Shown here in pieces: positions 27,548-34,528 of a DNA stretch of 64,000 nt. Position numbers and translations under genes: made by a program. Positions within the stretch are counted from its first letter, which is position 1. Every line of letters begins with the position of its first letter. The notes beneath the pieces were generated by a model. That model had not been told where the DNA came from and did no database searches. It saw nothing but the letters and a program-made list of their open reading frames with translations. Source of the DNA: a virus (Duplodnaviria; Caudoviricetes); the IMG/VR virus record IMGVR_UViG_3300035088_000004, positions 473 to 64,472 of that record; one strand, written 5' to 3'.

Positions 27548-29740
27548 TTATTGCACGGTTATCGCTATGTTCTTAGTCCCACATGGCCCGCTGATCGTCA
27601 CCACCGCCGACTTCTTCTTTGCCGCCAGCGAGAACTCAACAATCGCACTGCCAAGGTTGACTGGTTGCAGGGCGGGCGTCACCGTCACCTGACCCGAGGT
27701 TGATGTAGCTGAAACCGTGGAACTCTTTGGAATCCCGGTTAATGTGACAATCAGCTTGCCTGTTCCCCACGCTGGGATGACTGGACTATTCGTGGTCATC
27801 ACGCAGAGGGGTGGTGTAGGCGTCGGTTGTGGCGTTGGTTGCGGCGTCGTTGTTGGCGTCGGACTACTACCCGGCGTTGGACTGGCAATCGGTGTAGCGG
27901 TCGGTGTCGGAGTAGCCACAGCACCCGGCTCCACGTCACCCGCTCCAGCCCACGCATCTCCGGTCCACCTGTACCACGGGCCGAGGACTCCCTGCACGTA
28001 GACTGCTCCGTCGAACCATTTGTACATCAGGCCAAAGCCGCCGCCGGTGTGGATACCGTTACGCAGGGTTTCCCTGTTCAGCCCCAACGTCCACGTCCCA
28101 CCTGAACTATCGGTAATCGTCGCTCCTGTCGCTCCATCGGCAGATACGTTGCCCGATGGCGTTGATTGCAGGATGGGCGGGGTTGGGGTTGGCGTGGGAG
28201 TCGCTGTCACACTCGGCAGTGGGCTTGCTGTCGGCGATGGTAACGGCCCACCTGTCCCACCCAGCCGCCAAGCAAGATACCGCCCGCCTGAGCGATACGA
28301 TTCGTCATACTCCTTGCCTCGGTAATGGGCCAACCCGCGATAGCCGTCCTTACCGCTGTACGTCGCGTCAAATATCTCATCCCCCCACTTGCGGAATTTG
28401 TCGTCCAAAGTGATTGAGTATGCATAGCCGAATTGACTAATTGCCGTCGCATTCAATTGTCGGGCATCAGAGACTAGATTGCCGTCAGCGGGAGGAAACG
28501 GATTTGACGCGCTACCACATCCTGTTTCACATGAGAATCCGGTATTAAACTTCCCGTGAACAAAGTAATACATCGTGCGCCAACCATTCGGGTTGTAGCT
28601 GTGGAGGTACTCATGCTCGACTGACTTGAGGATTGCCGCTTTGACGATAGGATCACCTGTCAGACGATGGACTGCGATCATCCCCTCGTTGAGAATGCCA
28701 ACTTGAAACGGTTGTTCAATGCCTGTCATGCCGTCAAGTGCCCCGGGACTTGAATCCTCGATACTAAATCGATACGAACCGTCATCGCTCTGTAACGCGG
28801 CATAGTAACTAACCGCGCTTCTCAACACCTTCGCAAGAAACTCTGCGCGAATAGCCGGGTCAGGATCAACTGCCGCTTCATTTGCGGCGTACAGAGTCAT
28901 AAACCCGCCGTCTCGCACACCGTAGTACAAGCCCGCCTTTGTTGGGTCTTTCTGAGTCCAGTTTGTGGGTGCTTCCACCCAGCTATTGAACTGGTATCGA
29001 ACGTAATCCCTGATCCACGGCCACATCTCCGGTCTGCCGTCTAAGGCGCGGAGTATTAAGCCGTTAAGACTAATCGAGCGCGGCGCAAGGGACTCTCCGC
29101 TTAACGAAACAAGATTCTTGCCATAGTCGATGACAGGTTGACTCCACCACGAATCATTTACCTTCCGTGCACAATCCAAAAACCGTTGATCACCTGTTCG
29201 GTAGTAGGTTTCATAACTCACATAGCCGAAGTCGTAGTAGTTCATGAACCCCTGATAGTTATCCATCTCGCTTGCTGATGGAGAAGCAATCGACTGCCCG
29301 GTCAATGTCGTCCCCTGCCACGGGAGCGTCAACGTCAACTGCGTATCACTCTCAACCGACGCTTTGATCTTGACGATCCTGCCTGCCGCCCCATTGCCGA
29401 TAATCGCGTAGTCCTTTACCTCGGTTAGAAAGTGGGTGTTGGAGCCGATGACGATCTTACTACCGTTGGTAACTGCAACTGTGCCGCTAATCACCACGTT
29501 CCCCGGCGTGTGGGCCACGTCAGGAAAGGCGGAGCACAAAGTCAACCCACGCTCGACGGCGGTTGAGTCAAACCAACTTGCGCCGGGGATTGTCGATGTG
29601 CCTGACTTGACCTGCGGCCCGATGATGAAGGCGACTTCAGCGGAGGGGAAGGTTACGGCATCGGTTTGTGCAGCAGAGTGGTGGACAGTGAATCCGGCAA
29701 CTGTAACAGCCACCGTTACAAATATAGCAAGTAGTCTCAT
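27548..29740 (-). CDS. Large secreted multidomain protein (aromatic-rich helical domain, Pro/Thr linkers, small beta domains), possibly carbohydrate-active
   Basis: Signal peptide MRLLAIFV...SAA-Q; PTPTPTP linkers; start is ATG 29740 with AAGGA SD. Confidence 0.8.
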   Translation of the reverse strand: MRLLAIFVTVAVTVAGFTVHHSAAQTDAVTFPSAEVAFIIGPQVKSGTSTIPGASWFDSTAVERGLTLCSAFPDVAHTPGNVVISGTVAVTNGSKIVIGSNTHFLTEVKDYAIIGNGAAGRIVKIKASVESDTQLTLTLPWQGTTLTGQSIASPSASEMDNYQGFMNYYDFGYVSYETYYRTGDQRFLDCARKVNDSWWSQPVIDYGKNLVSLSGESLAPRSISLNGLILRALDGRPEMWPWIRDYVRYQFNSWVEAPTNWTQKDPTKAGLYYGVRDGGFMTLYAANEAAVDPDPAIRAEFLAKVLRSAVSYYAALQSDDGSYRFSIEDSSPGALDGMTGIEQPFQVGILNEGMIAVHRLTGDPIVKAAILKSVEHEYLHSYNPNGWRTMYYFVHGKFNTGFSCETGCGSASNPFPPADGNLVSDARQLNATAISQFGYAYSITLDDKFRKWGDEIFDATYSGKDGYRGLAHYRGKEYDESYRSGGRYLAWRLGGTGGPLPSPTASPLPSVTATPTPTPTPPILQSTPSGNVSADGATGATITDSSGGTWTLGLNRETLRNGIHTGGGFGLMYKWFDGAVYVQGVLGPWYRWTGDAWAGAGDVEPGAVATPTPTATPIASPTPGSSPTPTTTPQPTPQPTPTPPLCVMTTNSPVIPAWGTGKLIVTLTGIPKSSTVSATSTSGQVTVTPALQPVNLGSAIVEFSLAAKKKSAVVTISGPCGTKNIAITVQ

Positions 29741-29745
29741 TTGAC

Positions 29746-29754
29746 TATTTCCTT
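29746..29754 (+). repeat. Left target-site duplication TATTTCCTT
   Basis: Identical 9-mer at 33483-33491. Confidence 0.9.
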
Positions 29755-29863
29755 GGCTTTGCCTCAAAAAGGTCTAAACACCTTCGTTTGCCTCAAAAAT
29801 CAAGTTGACCGATCTTCGCGCCGCGATTCGCGGCCAACCTGAGTTTGAGGCAAAGGATAGAAT

Positions 29864-29950
29864 TTAGATCTTAACTCCCATCGCGTTTAGCAACTGTTCC
29901 TCTTCAAACGTTAATTTACCCTCCGTGAATCTGAGAAACAGGTCAAGCAT
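29864..29950 (-). CDS. 28-aa micropeptide
   Basis: MLDLFLRFTEGKLTFEEEQLLNAMGVKI with SD GAGGA. Confidence 0.45.
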   Translation of the reverse strand: MLDLFLRFTEGKLTFEEEQLLNAMGVKI

Positions 29951-30483
29951 GGTCGATTCCTCTTATACAGGTTTCGGTCGTGTAGGGGCTGGTGAGTGCT
30001 TCGAACACTTGCCAGTCCCGCTTCTAGCGAGGCCAACCACTATAGAGACATTGTTTCACACATGCAAGGGCCAATCCGAAATAATTCTTGATCAAAAATC
30101 CTGCGTGATTTACTCTTAGCGTGTCGTAAGCCCTACATTGTGGACGTTCTTCCGACAAGGTTGGAATGGACGTGACAAGAAACAAGGACGATGCGGGCGA
30201 GAACGATGTGTGCTGTTCTTTTACAACCAATCCCAGTTGAGTCTGATTTATATACCCTGGCCTAAGGCTAAGGGGGTTCTCATCAGCCCAAGGCTGACAA
30301 AAACATATTAGGCAACCGTTCTTGTCTTGCCTAAGGTAAATCAAAGCTCGCTGTGCAAAAACTAGGAGACGCGGTACGTCTACCCTTTTTGCATGGCGGG
30401 CTTTTTTAGTTTGGACTTAGAACAGTTCGGCGTTCTTAACTTAAAGAAAGGGCTCACTTTATCGAGAGCTAAATCCTTAAATT

Positions 30484-30513
30484 GAAAAAGACTGGCGGCA
30501 ACCAGTCTCTTTC
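30484..30513 (-). terminator. Probable intrinsic terminator
   Basis: GAAAGAGACTGG-TTGCCG-CCAGTCTTTTTC on - strand. Confidence 0.5.
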
Positions 30514-30608
30514 AGAAAGCAAAATTGACGATGAATCAAAAACCGCAAAGGCGGCACCCTCTTGGTGTCGGCATAGTAACTCGAAGCCCGATTACTGTGC
30601 AAGAGAAA

Positions 30609-30722
30609 ATGTCGGACCAAACTAAAAGCGTTAAGGCTACGATCCTGCGCCTCGCGTCGGCGACAATTCGCGTTAGAGAATTACCGACAGGCGAATTGAT
30701 TATCGAGATCGAGCCGCCATAG
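30609..30722 (+). CDS. 37-aa beta-rich micropeptide
   Basis: MSDQTKSVKATILRLASATIRVRELPTGELIIEIEPP; converges on transposase at hairpin 30728-30756. Confidence 0.45.
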   Translation: MSDQTKSVKATILRLASATIRVRELPTGELIIEIEPP

Positions 30723-30758
30723 GATTCGTGCAAGCCCTGTGAGGCGGGCTACGCACAA

Positions 30759-31994
30759 TTACGCGGCGTGAGCTTCCGAAAAGTCTACGTCAATTCCTAA
30801 CTCATGCTGTGACTGAATGACTACGCAGAGATTGTGGCAAAGCACCTTGCACAGTGCTTCGTTAATCTGCGCCGTGAGTGTCTTACTGCGAAGTCTCTGC
30901 CCAAACTTCGACTTGATCATGTGGAACGTCGTTTCAACGTTGGACCGCTTGTGATAGTGCGTCAAGAATTCTTCGCGGTGGTCTGTGTAGAATTCCAGCA
31001 TTCGAGTCCACAGCGTTGACTTTGGACCATAGTTGGTCTGTGCTTTGGAATTGGACTTGAACGGGATGTAAGGGATGGCCTTATGCCGCAAAGTCGTTAA
31101 TAGATTCTCTCCGCTTAAATAGGCTTTGTCTGCGCTCACTTCTTTCAGCGTGAAACCGTTTCCGGCAGTCGCTTCGAGCAAAGGCTTGAAGTAACCGTGA
31201 TCGTTTGAGTATCCATCGCTTATCTCAACGGACGTAACCACGTTGGTTTTTACCCCACACATCAGATGCACCTTGATCCACATGCGCCGATCTTCTTCCT
31301 TGCCATACTTCACATCTAGCCAACGCGTGAATTGACCTGTGCTGAACCCCGAACTATCAACCGCGAAGTCTGATTCAATCGATTTGAGCGGCTGTGCACT
31401 CAACTTGATCAACTCATACAAGTACGGTGTCAATGCTTCGGCTTCGAGGTAACGAAAGACTGAATTATATGAAGGCATCTGAGACAGAAAGCCGCGTCTT
31501 CTCGCTTCCTGTAGATCACTCTGAAAGCGGCGACCTGAAACCGTAGAATAAACTTTGAACGTGCTGGCGAAGATAATGTCAGCCAACGATAGACGCGGCC
31601 TCCCGCGATGCTGCACAGGCTCAGGGATGTTTCTGCATAGTTCGTAGAGCAATGCCTGTAGCTGTGACTTCTCTTGGGTCTGAGCGGCATTGTACGCGGG
31701 CCAATTCTGCGTGTAGGTCTTGCGCGTGACCTTGACCGTTTCGGTTGTGATGGTCGCGCCGTCTGCGGTCTGCTCGCGTTGGATCGTGTATTCGACTGCA
31801 AAGATATGCTTGCATCTGGCGCTAGTGAATTCGTGATCACGGCAAGTGCAACTCGGCTTTTCAGCGTCCAGCGCAACGGTGTACTTTTCCTGCTTATTGC
31901 TTTGTGAGGGAACAAGCCAAAGATTGCCTTTGCCTTGGCGCGTCAGTTTGGTTTTAGCGGCTATTTCAAGACCTTTGATCTCGCGTGGTTCCAT
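30759..31994 (-). CDS. DDE transposase (IS4/IS5 superfamily) with N-terminal SWIM zinc finger
   Basis: CTC...CKH SWIM; AVDSSG, SADKAY, YHKRSNVETTFHMIK (Y-2-R-3-E-6-K); start 31994 has AAGGAG SD. Confidence 0.92.
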   Translation of the reverse strand: MEPREIKGLEIAAKTKLTRQGKGNLWLVPSQSNKQEKYTVALDAEKPSCTCRDHEFTSARCKHIFAVEYTIQREQTADGATITTETVKVTRKTYTQNWPAYNAAQTQEKSQLQALLYELCRNIPEPVQHRGRPRLSLADIIFASTFKVYSTVSGRRFQSDLQEARRRGFLSQMPSYNSVFRYLEAEALTPYLYELIKLSAQPLKSIESDFAVDSSGFSTGQFTRWLDVKYGKEEDRRMWIKVHLMCGVKTNVVTSVEISDGYSNDHGYFKPLLEATAGNGFTLKEVSADKAYLSGENLLTTLRHKAIPYIPFKSNSKAQTNYGPKSTLWTRMLEFYTDHREEFLTHYHKRSNVETTFHMIKSKFGQRLRSKTLTAQINEALCKVLCHNLCVVIQSQHELGIDVDFSEAHAA

Positions 31995-32130
31995 TATGAG
32001 CATCTCCTTGCCTTTAAGAAGCGATTCGCTCACAATGTCTTTACCGGAGATCAAGTGCGAGCAATCGCGTTTGATTTTCAAAAGGGCCTTAGCGGTTACA
32101 GCCGTTAGGGCCTTTGCTTTTCGATGAGGG

Positions 32131-32201
32131 AATTATACGTGCGCGGGTACGTATAAGTCAAGGCGAATGGTTGACTTCTACGAAGGCGGGCACGTATAAT
32201 T
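32131..32201. promoter_or_regulatory. Mirror-image divergent promoters
   Basis: Both strands read TTGACTTnTACG-N6-GCACGTATAATT (TTGACT-18-TATAAT). Confidence 0.8.
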
Positions 32202-32207
32202 GCAGCC

Positions 32208-32405
32208 ATGCCAAGACAAAAGAAAAAGAATGCGGCAGCGGTCGCTCTAGGGCGTAGAGGCGCTAGGAAAGGCGGTCTGGCTCGCGCAGCAAGCTTAACA
32301 GCGGAAGAGCGTAGCGAGAGCGCCAAAAGGGCAGTAGCGGCCCGGTGGGAACGGTATAGAGAGAAGTTAGACCGCAAGCGTCCGGGTGATTCATCCGGCA
32401 GCTAA
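32208..32405 (+). CDS. Small basic protein (G..GG.ARA..LT.EERS..A..A..ARW), leaderless
   Basis: 65 aa; ATG 7 nt after TATAAT. Confidence 0.8.
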   Translation: MPRQKKKNAAAVALGRRGARKGGLARAASLTAEERSESAKRAVAARWERYREKLDRKRPGDSSGS

Positions 32406-32407
32406 AT

Positions 32408-33418
32408 CTAATGTCGCGGAAAAAACTTGTTCAAAGGATCACTATGCGCCGCAGATGGATTGGCCTTGCGTCTTATCTTTTCCAACTTAGATTGTTCTCG
32501 TTGGGCCTTTACGTCCGGTCGATGCAATAGCTCTGTTATTTTCTTCGCCGGAATGACGAGAGCGATCCCCATATTTAGAGGCGAGAGCGTTGCGTCATGT
32601 CCATTGATTTTCACGTCCTGTTCCCCCGGATAAAACCCTTGAATAATTCCTATACAGTGACTTACCTCCCATGACGGACGGGAACTAGTTCGTTCCTCGT
32701 AAACTTTCGTCGGTCGCAGGAACACCGGGGAACCGCTTTGACCGCCCCATGACGCTATCTCTACCAAGAATGCTTCGATCTCTTGGTAGATGTCAGGTTC
32801 TATCTCTGCTGTGATCTTCTCACCTATTGCTGGAACTAGAGCGATGTGCCCAAAACGGGCCACTGGAGTCGCCGCGTGGTCACTACCTGAATGATGATCG
32901 AAAAGTCCGATGCTAAACACTTCATCTCCAGAGCCGTATCTGAGCGGACTAGGATGATCGGCTGGAAATTGATTCATGGGGTAGTAGTGATCCGCGTAAG
33001 AACGTAATTCTGTATGATCTATCAATTCGATATCGAACTTTTCAAACTCACCCTTCCACATAAACTCCAGCGGAACTACAGCCACATCGCTACTCGGATC
33101 ACAGAACCAATCGCCTTTTAGTATAGGCTTATCTTCTTTACCGCCGCGCTTCAAGTTAAGTCGGATCTGGACATCCGAGTCAAAGATCGAATGCCTGGTG
33201 GTCACGGCATATACCGCCATATCCCATTTCATTAGAACAAAAAATACCGTGGAAACAGGTTCGTTATTCTCAATGAGAAAGGTAGCGGTCTTGGTAATAT
33301 CTGGATTTATAAACACGCGTAGATGTCCCCACTTATCAAGTATGGGTTTCCATCGCCAACTATTCCATCTCGGATCTTGGTAGTAGAGTAGCGGCTCATG
33401 CCGCAGATTATGCGGCAT
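32408..33418 (-). CDS. Trypsin-like serine protease (transposon cargo)
   Basis: Triad motifs VTTRH, SDVAVV, GGQSGSPVF; no signal peptide. Confidence 0.85.
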   Translation of the reverse strand: MPHNLRHEPLLYYQDPRWNSWRWKPILDKWGHLRVFINPDITKTATFLIENNEPVSTVFFVLMKWDMAVYAVTTRHSIFDSDVQIRLNLKRGGKEDKPILKGDWFCDPSSDVAVVPLEFMWKGEFEKFDIELIDHTELRSYADHYYPMNQFPADHPSPLRYGSGDEVFSIGLFDHHSGSDHAATPVARFGHIALVPAIGEKITAEIEPDIYQEIEAFLVEIASWGGQSGSPVFLRPTKVYEERTSSRPSWEVSHCIGIIQGFYPGEQDVKINGHDATLSPLNMGIALVIPAKKITELLHRPDVKAQREQSKLEKIRRKANPSAAHSDPLNKFFPRH

Positions 33419-33481
33419 TAGTTGCCCCCTTTAAATCGGTCAATCTGCTTTTTGGGGCAGACGCCGTTATTAAGGCAAAGC

Positions 33482-33733
33482 CTATTTCCTTCCATTATTA
33501 TGACGACTGTTGATTTGTTTGATTGCGCCGGTCTTTACAACATCCTCGACACGCACCTTGTAAAAAATACACAGCTTAGCCAGCGTGTCGCCTGTCGGCG
33601 CAGCCCGTCCTGTCTCAATCTGCCAGAGTGTCTGTCGCGTGATATTCAGTGCTTCCGTAACACTCTGCACCGTGCGCTCACCCCGCGCCTGCCTGATACG
33701 CTTATAATCGATTACCGTGTCCGCTGGTTTCAT
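33482..33733 (-). CDS. XRE-family HTH regulator, leaderless
   Basis: RIRQARGERTVQSVTEALNITRQTLWQIETGRAAP; ATG 33733 is 7 nt after TAGACT. Confidence 0.85.
   Translation of the reverse strand: MKPADTVIDYKRIRQARGERTVQSVTEALNITRQTLWQIETGRAAPTGDTLAKLCIFYKVRVEDVVKTGAIKQINSRHNNGRK
33483..33491 (+). repeat. Right target-site duplication TATTTCCTT
   Basis: Abuts right TIR. Confidence 0.9.
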
Positions 33734-33740
33734 TGCTCGC

Positions 33741-33860
33741 AGTCTAATCCTGTCATTCAGCCACGTCAATGCTAATTTACAGGCCGGAAACGGTCGGTTG
33801 AAAATAATTGCTGAATAGTTGTAACGAGCTATTGACATGAATAAGAGTCAGGTGTATAGT
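33741..33860. promoter_or_regulatory. Divergent promoter pair with shared ATTGAC-N10-G(A/T)CAG site
   Basis: -: TTGACG(33769)-17-TAGACT; +: TTGACA(33832)-17-TATAGT. Confidence 0.75.
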
Positions 33861-33902: not shown

Positions 33903-34205
33903 ATGGCAAGTATCGGACGGGGAAATTTGAGATGCAAAGTTCAGGGGTGTAATCGAGTGCGTCCGTATTGGGCAGATGAGTGCAAGGGACACCGCAAGGC
34001 AAAGCCAAAGGTGGACACCAACAAACCAACCTTCTGCGGCAACCGAGAGTCAGGCTGTGGCGCTGAACTGACGGAGGCCGATTTCGAGAATGGCGCATGT
34101 ACGCAGTGCTCGTATCCGCTCGGAGTATCCGGCCTCCCACTTGAGCATCAACTGCTCCTGTCACTACGGGAGATTCAAAGCCAGCGGGATGAGGAGGTTG
34201 CATGA
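33903..34205 (+). CDS. Zinc-finger hypothetical early protein
   Basis: SD GGAG; several Cys pairs. Confidence 0.7.
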   Translation: MASIGRGNLRCKVQGCNRVRPYWADECKGHRKAKPKVDTNKPTFCGNRESGCGAELTEADFENGACTQCSYPLGVSGLPLEHQLLLSLREIQSQRDEEVA

Positions 34206-34528
34206 TGAATGAACGAGTTAAAAAGCTATGGGTTGACGCACTGCGGAGCGGCAAGTACAGGCAATGCAGGGCTAGATTAAAAGTTCACGGCAATCGGGAC
34301 AATGGCCCATCTTATTGCTGTCTCGGAGTTCTGGAAGAAATCGCGAAAGATGAGGGTGTTATAAGCGGCTACGATGCGGCTGGACTGGTACTTGATAAAA
34401 CAGTTATGGGTTGGGCCGAATTAGAAACTGCCGATCCAAGAGTGGGTGACGGACAATCACTTACCGCGCTGAACGATAGCGGTAGCGGTTTTTGGTTTAT
34501 CGCTGAACAAATTGAACAGCATCTTTAA
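34202..34528 (+). CDS. Phage protein, paralog of 3828-4172
   Basis: MNERVKKLWVDALRSGKYRQ...CCLGVLEE...LNDSG. Confidence 0.8.
   Translation: MMNERVKKLWVDALRSGKYRQCRARLKVHGNRDNGPSYCCLGVLEEIAKDEGVISGYDAAGLVLDKTVMGWAELETADPRVGDGQSLTALNDSGSGFWFIAEQIEQHL

Follow-up and report, generated by a model that had tools for sequence, protein, structure and literature searches.

The insertion sequences (ISs) of the IS5 family are textbook minimal elements, and those of its IS903 group duplicate 9 bp of their target. The IS903B copy that serves for comparison here is 1057 bp long, has ends reading GGCTTTGTTGAATAAATC and carries a single gene, for a 322-aa transposase; its two flanks differ, and a 9-bp duplication was not seen in them. 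Tn7 homes to attTn7, a single safe chromosomal site, has multiple binding sites in its ends, inserts occasionally into mobile DNA and resists insertion next to a resident copy. The eukaryotic Mutator and Mutator-like element (MULE) transposases combine a DDE catalytic domain with a SWIM zinc finger. Transporter ISs are a descriptive class, not a lineage. In the part of PMC9330008 that defines them, they consist of a single transposase gene and passenger genes inside one inverted-repeat pair. The ISAjo2-type "dif site hunters" of the IS1202 family are presented, in the sections of PMC10132070 that deal with them (Harmer, Pong & Hall 2023), as DDE elements lying at a fixed short distance from one arm of dif; they are 1.5 kb long and free of cargo, with a TnsB-like transposase, TGT/ACA ends, a 5-bp duplication and one orientation. 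The subject of this analysis is a 3728-bp segment (29755-33482) of a 64,000-nucleotide stretch of viral DNA (the window; all positions are those of this stretch) from the IMG/VR record IMGVR_UViG_3300035088_000004. It is very probably one intact unit transposon of the transporter IS kind, moved whole into a tailed soil phage.

Ends, transposase and insertion site

The exact 9-bp sequence TATTTCCTT abuts both terminal inverted repeats (TIRs); these are imperfect, 16 bp long and identical at 14 of 16 positions (repeat pair I6, 88% complementary). The chance identity of one given 9-mer pair is ~1/262,144. The virus record is 64,472 bp long, has direct terminal repeats, is rated 100% complete and encodes a large terminase, portal, major head protein, tape measure and tail protein; the preliminary description, made from the sequence alone, was thus correct to place the element in a phage. 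Its delimitation of 3728 bp by TIRs and an exact 9-bp duplication is borne out by the same layout in 43 of 77 related loci (see below), and its picture of a single-transposase, passenger-carrying element with IS903-like ends by the domains, the ends, the cargo and the completeness of the virus record.

The insertion lies between the stop codon of a helix-turn-helix (HTH) gene (33482-33838, minus strand; HTH_31/HTH_3) and the start of a 730-aa gene (27548-29740, minus strand; ATG at 29740-29738). Read on the minus strand, the duplicated 9-mer is AAGGAAATA, the ribosome-binding site of the downstream 730-aa phage gene. Both this site and the HTH-gene stop codon are intact after insertion.

The transposase had been described as a DDE enzyme with a YREK motif and an N-terminal SWIM finger, and Pfam and an alignment of 48 homologues agree: C49, C51, C61, H63, D289, R350, E354 and K361 are invariant in these homologues, down to 37% identity, with D213 and Y347 conserved in at least 90%. 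The listed open reading frame (ORF) spans 30759-32081; since most homologues are 404-416 aa long, translation most likely starts at M30 of that frame (window 31994), giving 411 aa. The IS903B transposase aligns to residues 97-388 (25% identity, E 2e-14) and matches the NWP-YN motif, D213, D289, Y347, R350 and E354; the first ~96 residues, which hold the SWIM finger, have no IS903B counterpart. IS903B is also the closest annotated relative in a plasmid collection, where the best-covering rows listed (a ranking sample) are mostly of the IS903B family and the top row among those listed is a Burkholderia IS5-family transposase. DDE_Tnp_1 and SWIM are the only Pfam domains found, a MULE-type domain not being among the matches, and a search of the PDB with the transposase sequence gave no match. 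An AlphaFold (AF2) model built on the 48-homologue alignment (pLDDT 89.5, pTM 0.75) combines a small N-terminal domain, rich in beta structure, with a low-confidence linker, a helical part and a core that is RNase-H-like. Among solved structures, it is best matched by the transposases of ISCth4, piggyBac and Tn5, with low TM-scores (0.29-0.42); TnsB ranks 22nd or lower (0.17-0.18). Some relatives (representatives P0193, P0206, P0214, P0218, P0223 and others) align only from about residue 88-95 on; their N-termini are different or longer, the IS903-like core apparently being joined to non-SWIM N-terminal domains.

The ends hold more than a terminal repeat. The left subterminal unit (Table 1) has a mirror counterpart at the right end (33435-33466), and an inverted third copy of the terminal motif pairs with 29769-29797, generating a long hairpin (29769-29872). 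Of 88 family ends, 40 have their own terminal 12-mer a second time in direct orientation (at most two mismatches), for an expectation, taken from interior windows, of 0.23. The copies lie at offsets 22, 33, 42-43 and 52-53, about one helical turn apart. The inner copy varies together with the terminal motif (for example in L035 and L051), which argues that one protein surface reads both. IS903B has the terminal repeat only.

Relatives, target sites and arrays

The transposase family is large: 7993 of 8000 scored candidate proteins are significant (E <= 1e-3), and an exhaustive search of 50%-identity cluster representatives retains 5791 at E <= 1e-3, 3266 at <= 1e-10 and 1056 at <= 1e-30. The 77 loci compiled comprise 75 genome loci and two viral contigs. 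The genomes are mostly metagenome-assembled ones of Pyrinomonadaceae and Blastocatellia (Acidobacteriota), with more distant loci in Eremiobacterota, Gemmataceae, an actinobacterium and several archaea. The viral contigs encode transposase relatives at L079:810-2024 and L080:6001-7182 (69% and 46% identity, respectively); the L079 element is cut by the contig end, and no boundaries were set for it.

That homologues should share these ends and the 9-bp duplication was a check proposed with the preliminary description. In 43 of the 77 loci, the transposase gene has a GGCTTTGCC end upstream (with no more than one mismatch), the complement of that end downstream and a 9-bp duplication outside; the duplication is exact in 42 of these and one mismatch off in L050. 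Pairing each start with the nearest end yields 52 units, 49 of them with a transposase and three resembling miniature inverted-repeat transposable elements (L042:1035-1133, 99 bp; L046:6160-6258, 99 bp; L055:6650-7074, 425 bp), which have the family ends and 9-bp duplications, lack a transposase and adjoin full elements. The sizes of 44 units, the window's included, range from 2261 to 7855 bp (median 4280). None is below 2.2 kb, nor is any unit near the ~1.4 kb expected of a bare IS; the two largest, L013 and L016, probably hold two elements each.

Non-transposase gene content is highly variable, 119 ORF clusters being singletons. Cargo ORFs were called by a simple longest-ORF rule with short ORFs dropped, and the counts that follow are to be read as a rough catalogue. 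Among 131 cargo ORFs of at least 110 aa, Pfam recognizes 43 families in all, among them P63C, Peptidase_M78 and HTH_3 (4 each), TPR repeats and receivers of response regulators (3), DNA methylases of two kinds (2 each), Trypsin_2 and PIN (2 each), and also DUF488, DUF3800, Nmad2 and NT5C. PADLOC reports RmrA and capP-like M78 proteins (4), type II methyltransferases (3) and mad2 (3).

In many of the compiled elements the 9-bp duplication is followed by ATAATATGTATTATC. A search for the 21-nt motif ATAATATGTATTATCAGACGC (at most two mismatches) places it beside an inverted-repeat-like end in 22 of the 77 loci, 21 of them with a spacing of exactly 9 bp and the other with 17 bp; past the motif, the sequences are unrelated between loci. 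One more motif-like match, at the archaeal locus L076, lacks an adjoining repeat and is probably due to chance. The motif is single-copy in 5 of 5 genomes, and a sample of 151 genomes of the same family contains 69 that have it (the unpublished G148 among them), 68 with one copy and one with two, at contig ends; a reversed-pattern control found 0 matches in the 151. In the complete chromosome G001 (7,491,284 bp), the motif lies at 6,993,245 and dnaA at 3,368,551, which puts the motif 121 kb (1.6%) from the point opposite. Twenty 20-kb windows placed around it show a plus-to-minus switch of GC skew at the motif: all 10 on its low side are positive, and 9 of the 10 on its high side are negative (U = 100, p = 1.8e-4). 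A second genome has 7 positive windows out of 10 on one side and 9 negative ones out of 10 on the other (p = 0.017).

Thirty motif sites were fetched regardless of transposases, and 28 of them are empty. The sites read as a variable 9 nt ending in AC (28/30), ATAA, a 6-bp centre that varies and then TTATC[A/G]GAC[G/C]C, which is conserved. They share the 11-6-11 layout of dif, with one arm well conserved; Table 5 of PMC10132070 gives the Acinetobacter dif that layout, and the A. baumannii dif as TGTTCGTATAA-tgtata-TTATGTTAAAT. On this architecture and position, the motif is very probably the chromosomal dif site. Elements occur in both orientations relative to it. The window itself has no dif-like sequence, its best match having 7 mismatches in 21. 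A reading of the phage insertion site as a degenerate dif was rejected, the adjoining registers in the two flanks having 17 and 14 mismatches.

The elements also stack. There are 50 end-to-start junctions with spacings of 0-60 bp in the 77 loci, and 27 of these (in 24 loci) are spaced exactly 9 bp. The inter-element spacer is the outer duplication, so that a head-to-tail array reads 9-mer, element, 9-mer, element, 9-mer; two elements lie beside the dif-like site in G001 and at least three in G002. Duplication at dif rebuilds arm and 9-mer, and the target is therefore intact for the next insertion. Spacers of other lengths (17-19, 24-26, 32-33 and 39 bp) consist of the local 9-mer in tandem copies of 8-9 nt, and such copies are also present on the outer side of some elements. 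Spacers of this footprint-like kind, with two to five tandem 7-9-nt copies, are found at L013:8543-8574, L047:3905-3937, L023:7323-7361, L041:3942-3966, L020:10428-10446 and L061:1015-1040 (one copy inverted). We read the tandem copies as probable excision footprints, replication slippage being the alternative; if they do come from excision, they would imply cut-and-paste transposition with end-joining. Footprints of that sort are seldom observed in bacteria.

A second clade, with transposases 55-60% identical, has another site: in 13 loci (L032, L033, L036-L041, L050, L051, L053, L056 and L068) the 9-bp duplication is followed by two ~18-nt direct repeats, TGGATACNNGGTNNCCA-like, at the right flank of the element (for example, L036:9098-9130 and L056:8439-8471). 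This motif is single-copy in 4 of 5 genomes, and since G029 holds both motifs it is a different site from the dif-like one. Two further identities were considered for it and rejected: as a terminus marker it has no skew switch (p = 0.24), and as the end of another transposon it would not have ordinary genes beyond it that differ between loci. Site-specificity may be general in the family, dif not being its sole target.

Origin of the phage copy

Metagenomic contigs bear on whether the element moves as a unit. In run X2, a soil metagenome from a sample other than the probable source, X1, the segments 29995-30437, 30626-30812, 31360-31502 and 32514-33454 are present with no differences, and depth is zero over the flanking bins 28700-29087, 33550-33743 and 33938-34325. 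The expectation that the cargo travels with the element is thus upheld: the protease segment occurs at 100% identity where the sampled flanking phage DNA is uncovered. Three X2 contigs match exactly to 33482 and then continue into other DNA (CAAAACAACATAATATGTATTATCAGACGC): past 33482 comes CAAAACAAC and then the dif-like motif ATAATATGTATTATCAGACGC. A contig of a ~92% relative in run X4 stops exactly at 29755; runs X3 and X4 contain only small shares and bear on no statement about habitat. Contigs of the probable source run break at 29965-29994, in the leader module described below, and at 31761-31790, in the SWIM-coding segment, which suggests that several related elements co-exist in that community.

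The mechanism that accounts for these observations can be put as follows. The transposase would bind the terminal 16-bp repeat and the phased subterminal copy at each end, excise the element and paste it with a 9-bp stagger, with the protease, the basic protein, the outward promoter module and hairpin-rich non-coding DNA travelling along. Its usual target, in the window's clade, would be the 9 bp beside the variable arm of a dif-like site at the replication terminus, to be read by some part of the protein; duplication would regenerate the site, further elements would enter at the same 9-mer, and head-to-tail arrays would build up. The phage has no dif-like motif beside the insertion, which makes the phage copy an off-target hop, probably acquired from the host chromosome during infection; we infer this direction from the residence of the relatives in bacterial chromosomes. 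At ~10 of 46 compiled sites there is neither a neighbouring element nor either motif, so the element can insert elsewhere at some rate, and a phage that replicates in a carrier host is an available target.

That the segment is a unit transposon is one proposition; that it is still a mobile one is another. The phage copy might be an immobile relic, a true family member that has lost movement and is merely carried along. The phage has a single copy, no empty-site allele was found, and a deletion of ~250 bp has left only the last 28 codons of a ~105-aa end-proximal gene (cluster 1). We nevertheless consider a relic improbable: the 9-bp duplication has no mismatch, the transposase gene has an open frame that retains every catalytic and zinc-binding residue, and segments of the element are 100% identical in another metagenome, alongside ends joined to different DNA. 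Many bounded relatives likewise have no cluster-1 gene, which was called in only 10 of 43. The arrays invite a quite different explanation, in which Xer recombination makes the pile-ups at dif, and the transposase and 9-bp repeats are incidental. Arrays do directly adjoin the dif-like site, and the inter-element spacer is the outer part of one arm. Yet elements off the motif, the phage copy included, keep the 9-bp duplications and the same inverted repeats, the window's element has no dif-like sequence, and the spacer is a local 9-mer that differs between genomes, as a staggered-cut duplication would give; Xer recombination as the source of the arrays is accordingly very unlikely. It is scarcely credible that the boundaries are an accident or a composite, with repeats of chance origin or from different elements around a protease and a basic-protein gene that belong to the phage. 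The three related phage contigs, it is true, share only the 730-aa gene and provide no syntenic empty site to compare, but the exact duplication, the layout common to 43 of 77 relatives, the occurrence of the protease segment away from sampled flanking phage DNA and the subterminal unit (I1) that the two ends share besides the terminal repeat all speak against it.

Preferring a mobile unit transposon does not dispose of everything, and several points weigh against the account given here. Invariance at positions 1-9 of the terminal repeat is partly built in, these positions being the search pattern (positions 10-16 and the subterminal unit were not imposed by the search). The best NCBIfam model for the transposase, transpos_IS5_2, scores 123.7 bits against a cut-off of 140, which is not reached. 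The identification of dif is one of position and architecture only, and coarse skew in twenty 20-kb samples over the whole chromosome is so noisy that it does not locate the terminus. Targeting varies within the family, the second clade lying beside a different single-copy motif, and the ~10 off-motif sites already mentioned depart from both. The last ~48 bp of the element are common to relatives, so that the X2 junction contigs that reach the motif cannot be assigned to it and may belong to a sibling element. No joint of 29754 to 33492 was found in the four runs for which contigs are kept (contigs lose rare variants), and the three viral contigs that share the 730-aa gene have no syntenic empty site. 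The phage copy could be defective if the truncated end-proximal gene is needed.

The notion of an intact cargo element in a phage withstands these points well; the wider generalization is less secure. We lean, by a little, to the view that the element represents an undescribed family of SWIM-DDE transposons with dif homing, a target regenerated by the 9-bp duplication and hence array stacking at the replication terminus, tandem 8-9-bp excision footprints, defence-like or regulatory cargo and occasional escape into phages.

Cargo, regulatory sequences and comparison with known systems

Table 1. Features of the element and its junctions with the phage, in window coordinates
Feature	Position	Strand	Basis and remarks
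Left copy of target-site duplication, TATTTCCTT	29746-29754	n/a	Direct reading of the window
Left TIR, GGCTTTGCCTCAAAAA	29755-29770	+	Terminal motif common to the ends of 43 related elements
Subterminal repeat: exact second TTTGCCTCAAAAA (29787-29799) and conserved TTGACCGAT (29805-29813)	29787-29813	+	Repeats D11, I1
Inverted third copy of terminal motif	29844-29855	-	Repeats I3, I14
Remnant ORF, 28 aa (MLDLFLRFTEGKLTFEEEQLLNAMGVKI)	29864-29950	-	C-terminal end of a ~105-aa gene, complete in 10 related elements
Outward-reading promoter-like module	29951-30071	-	Alignment of 14 copies from 13 elements
Structured non-coding stretch	30250-30530	-	Folds better than shuffles, z = -6.4 (minus), -4.6 (plus)
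Transposase, 411 aa	30759-31994	-	Pfam DDE_Tnp_1 (1.4e-23) and SWIM (4.2e-6)
DDE domain, D213/D289/E354, Y347-R350-E354-K361	30828-31376	-	
SWIM finger, C49/C51/C61/H63	31782-31883	-	N-terminal
Hairpin, 15-bp stem	32082-32115		Terminator-like on both strands; between transposase promoter and start codon
Divergent promoter-like pair, TTGACT, 18 nt, TATAAT	32131-32201		11/12 matches each
Basic protein, 65 aa	32208-32405	+	tblastn matches in 7/43 other elements; PHROG 2384 (2.1e-7)
Serine protease cargo, 336 aa	32408-33418	-	Distantly related to Trypsin_2
Right TIR, reverse complement GGCTTTGCCTTAATAA	33467-33482	-	Match of X2 contigs stops exactly at 33482
Right copy of target-site duplication, TATTTCCTT	33483-33491	n/a	Overlaps the last codons and stop of the HTH gene

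The contents of the element stand largely as they had been listed (transposase, basic protein, protease and structured stretch); one of the "micro-ORFs" is a gene remnant, and the start of the transposase has been moved. Upstream of that remnant, the outward-reading module comprises TTGCAT (30067-30062), a 17-nt spacer, TATAGT (30044-30039) and a ~90-nt leader with a hairpin conserved by RNAalifold. In relatives, the leader module (aligned over window 29943-30070 and 13 related elements) precedes the ~105-aa gene (10 elements) or a 96-aa gene (3 elements); the two protein families that follow it are mutually unrelated, and neither matches Pfam or PHROG. In the phage, the module points toward the 730-aa gene on the same strand, whose expression it might help to sustain.

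The structured stretch contains, at ~30484-30513, a terminator-like hairpin followed by a U-run, 3' of the transposase gene. Rfam assigned it no family; the one Rfam match, sub-threshold and snoRNA-like (E = 0.8), was rejected. On the other side of the transposase gene, a 31-nt inverted repeat contains both members of the divergent promoter-like pair, one (32161-32132) directed at the transposase and the other (32171-32200) at the basic protein. The hairpin downstream may act as an attenuator, and the layout as a whole would be that of a regulated, attenuated transposase promoter.

Five of the seven matches to the basic protein sit upstream of and divergent from the transposase gene, by comparison of coordinates; elsewhere its motif makes up the N-terminal part of P63C-domain proteins that related elements carry. 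The protease has 56 homologues, 8 of them with Trypsin_2 (PF13365), and its H76, D111 and S228 (in GQSGSP) are invariant in 21 aligned sequences. PADLOC PDC-S45 matches residues 209-297 only (1.1e-7), which is read as a probable shared fold and as no evidence of a defence role. A tblastn search did not find the protease in the 43 other bounded elements. Neither the protease nor the basic protein nor a 65-aa ORF at 30525-30722 matches Pfam or NCBIfam.

Of the surrounding phage genes, the 730-aa gene encodes a signal-peptide-like N-terminus and Pro/Thr-rich linkers, matches tail-fibre PHROGs over residues 84-154 only and has no Pfam or NCBIfam match; its homologues, at 63-67% identity, are in the three viral contigs (L081-L083) that share no further synteny. 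No viral match was obtained with the HTH gene or with a 25-nt string from the left flank. A 776-aa phage protein (15130-17460, plus strand) matches DNA helicase and DNA methyltransferase PHROGs and looks like a fusion.

The interest lies less in the single phage copy than in the large family of cargo transposons behind it. An IS903-like core has here gained a zinc finger, multi-site ends, kilobases of exchangeable cargo and, in one clade, a chromosomal home of its own. If dif targeting holds, "dif hunting" would have arisen among DDE transposases a second time, independently of the IS1202 family, and the target-rebuilding duplication would be a mechanism for generating gene arrays at the terminus. 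With cargo that includes methyltransferases, RosmerTA-like M78 peptidase regulators, PIN domains and proteases, such arrays could serve as exchangeable accessory or defence islands in soil Acidobacteriota, which are abundant and poorly studied. The phage copy ties an uncultured phage to a Pyrinomonadaceae-like host and indicates that cargo of this kind can cross from host chromosome to virus, if the direction suggested above is right; escape into phages, if true, would let host genes pass directly into viral genomes.

No paper on a SWIM-bearing IS5-type transposase, on a transporter IS of the IS903 group or with a SWIM transposase, or on dif-targeting cargo transposons of this sort was found in literature searches, the curated ISfinder and TnCentral collections lying outside the search; the family is apparently undescribed. 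The element resembles IS903 and IS903B in ends that begin GGCTTTG, in the D/D/E triad and Y-R-E-K block, in the NWP-YN motif and in having a single transposase gene. It differs from IS903B in its 3728-bp length, the extra ~96-residue N-terminal SWIM domain, the phased subterminal repeats, the cargo and the site-specific clade to which it belongs. Of the traits that mark the IS5 family and its IS903 group, it has the IS4/IS5-type DDE domain with a Y-(2)-R-(3)-E-(6)-K block, GGC ends and the 9-bp duplication; it lacks the ~1-kb, transposase-only size and falls short of the NCBIfam IS5 cut-off. Judged by catalytic domain, ends and duplication length, it is an IS903-like member of the IS5 family; its size, domain architecture, ends, cargo and targeting place it outside the usual definition of an IS903-group IS. 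The combination of DDE and SWIM recalls the MULE/Mutator transposases, from which the element differs in having a catalytic domain of the DDE_Tnp_1 (IS4/IS5) type and an N-terminal SWIM finger. Xer-exploiting integrative elements (IMEX) have a dif-like site of their own and no transposase; here a transposase is present, and the best dif-like match has the 7 mismatches noted above.

With transporter ISs, or unit transposons, as delimited in the relevant part of PMC9330008, the phage element shares one transposase with passengers, one TIR pair and one duplication. The ISAjo2-type elements, so far as the pertinent sections of PMC10132070 describe them, are matched in the absence of helper targeting genes, in a fixed distance from a dif or dif-like arm and in additional sites for transposase binding close to the ends; this fixed distance is a property of the 21 related loci at exactly 9 bp, the phage copy itself not being at dif. 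The relatives depart from that type in an IS903-like transposase with a SWIM domain, a 9-bp duplication that overlaps the arm, both orientations, 1-6 kb of cargo and arrays, and the phage element has none of the IS1202 traits (TnsB-like transposase, TGT/ACA ends, 5-bp duplication). In outline, the family is also like Tn7, with homing to a single-copy site, multi-site ends and occasional insertion into mobile DNA; unlike Tn7, it has no TnsA-, TnsC- or TnsD-like genes, relies on one transposase of another lineage and stacks repeatedly at its site.

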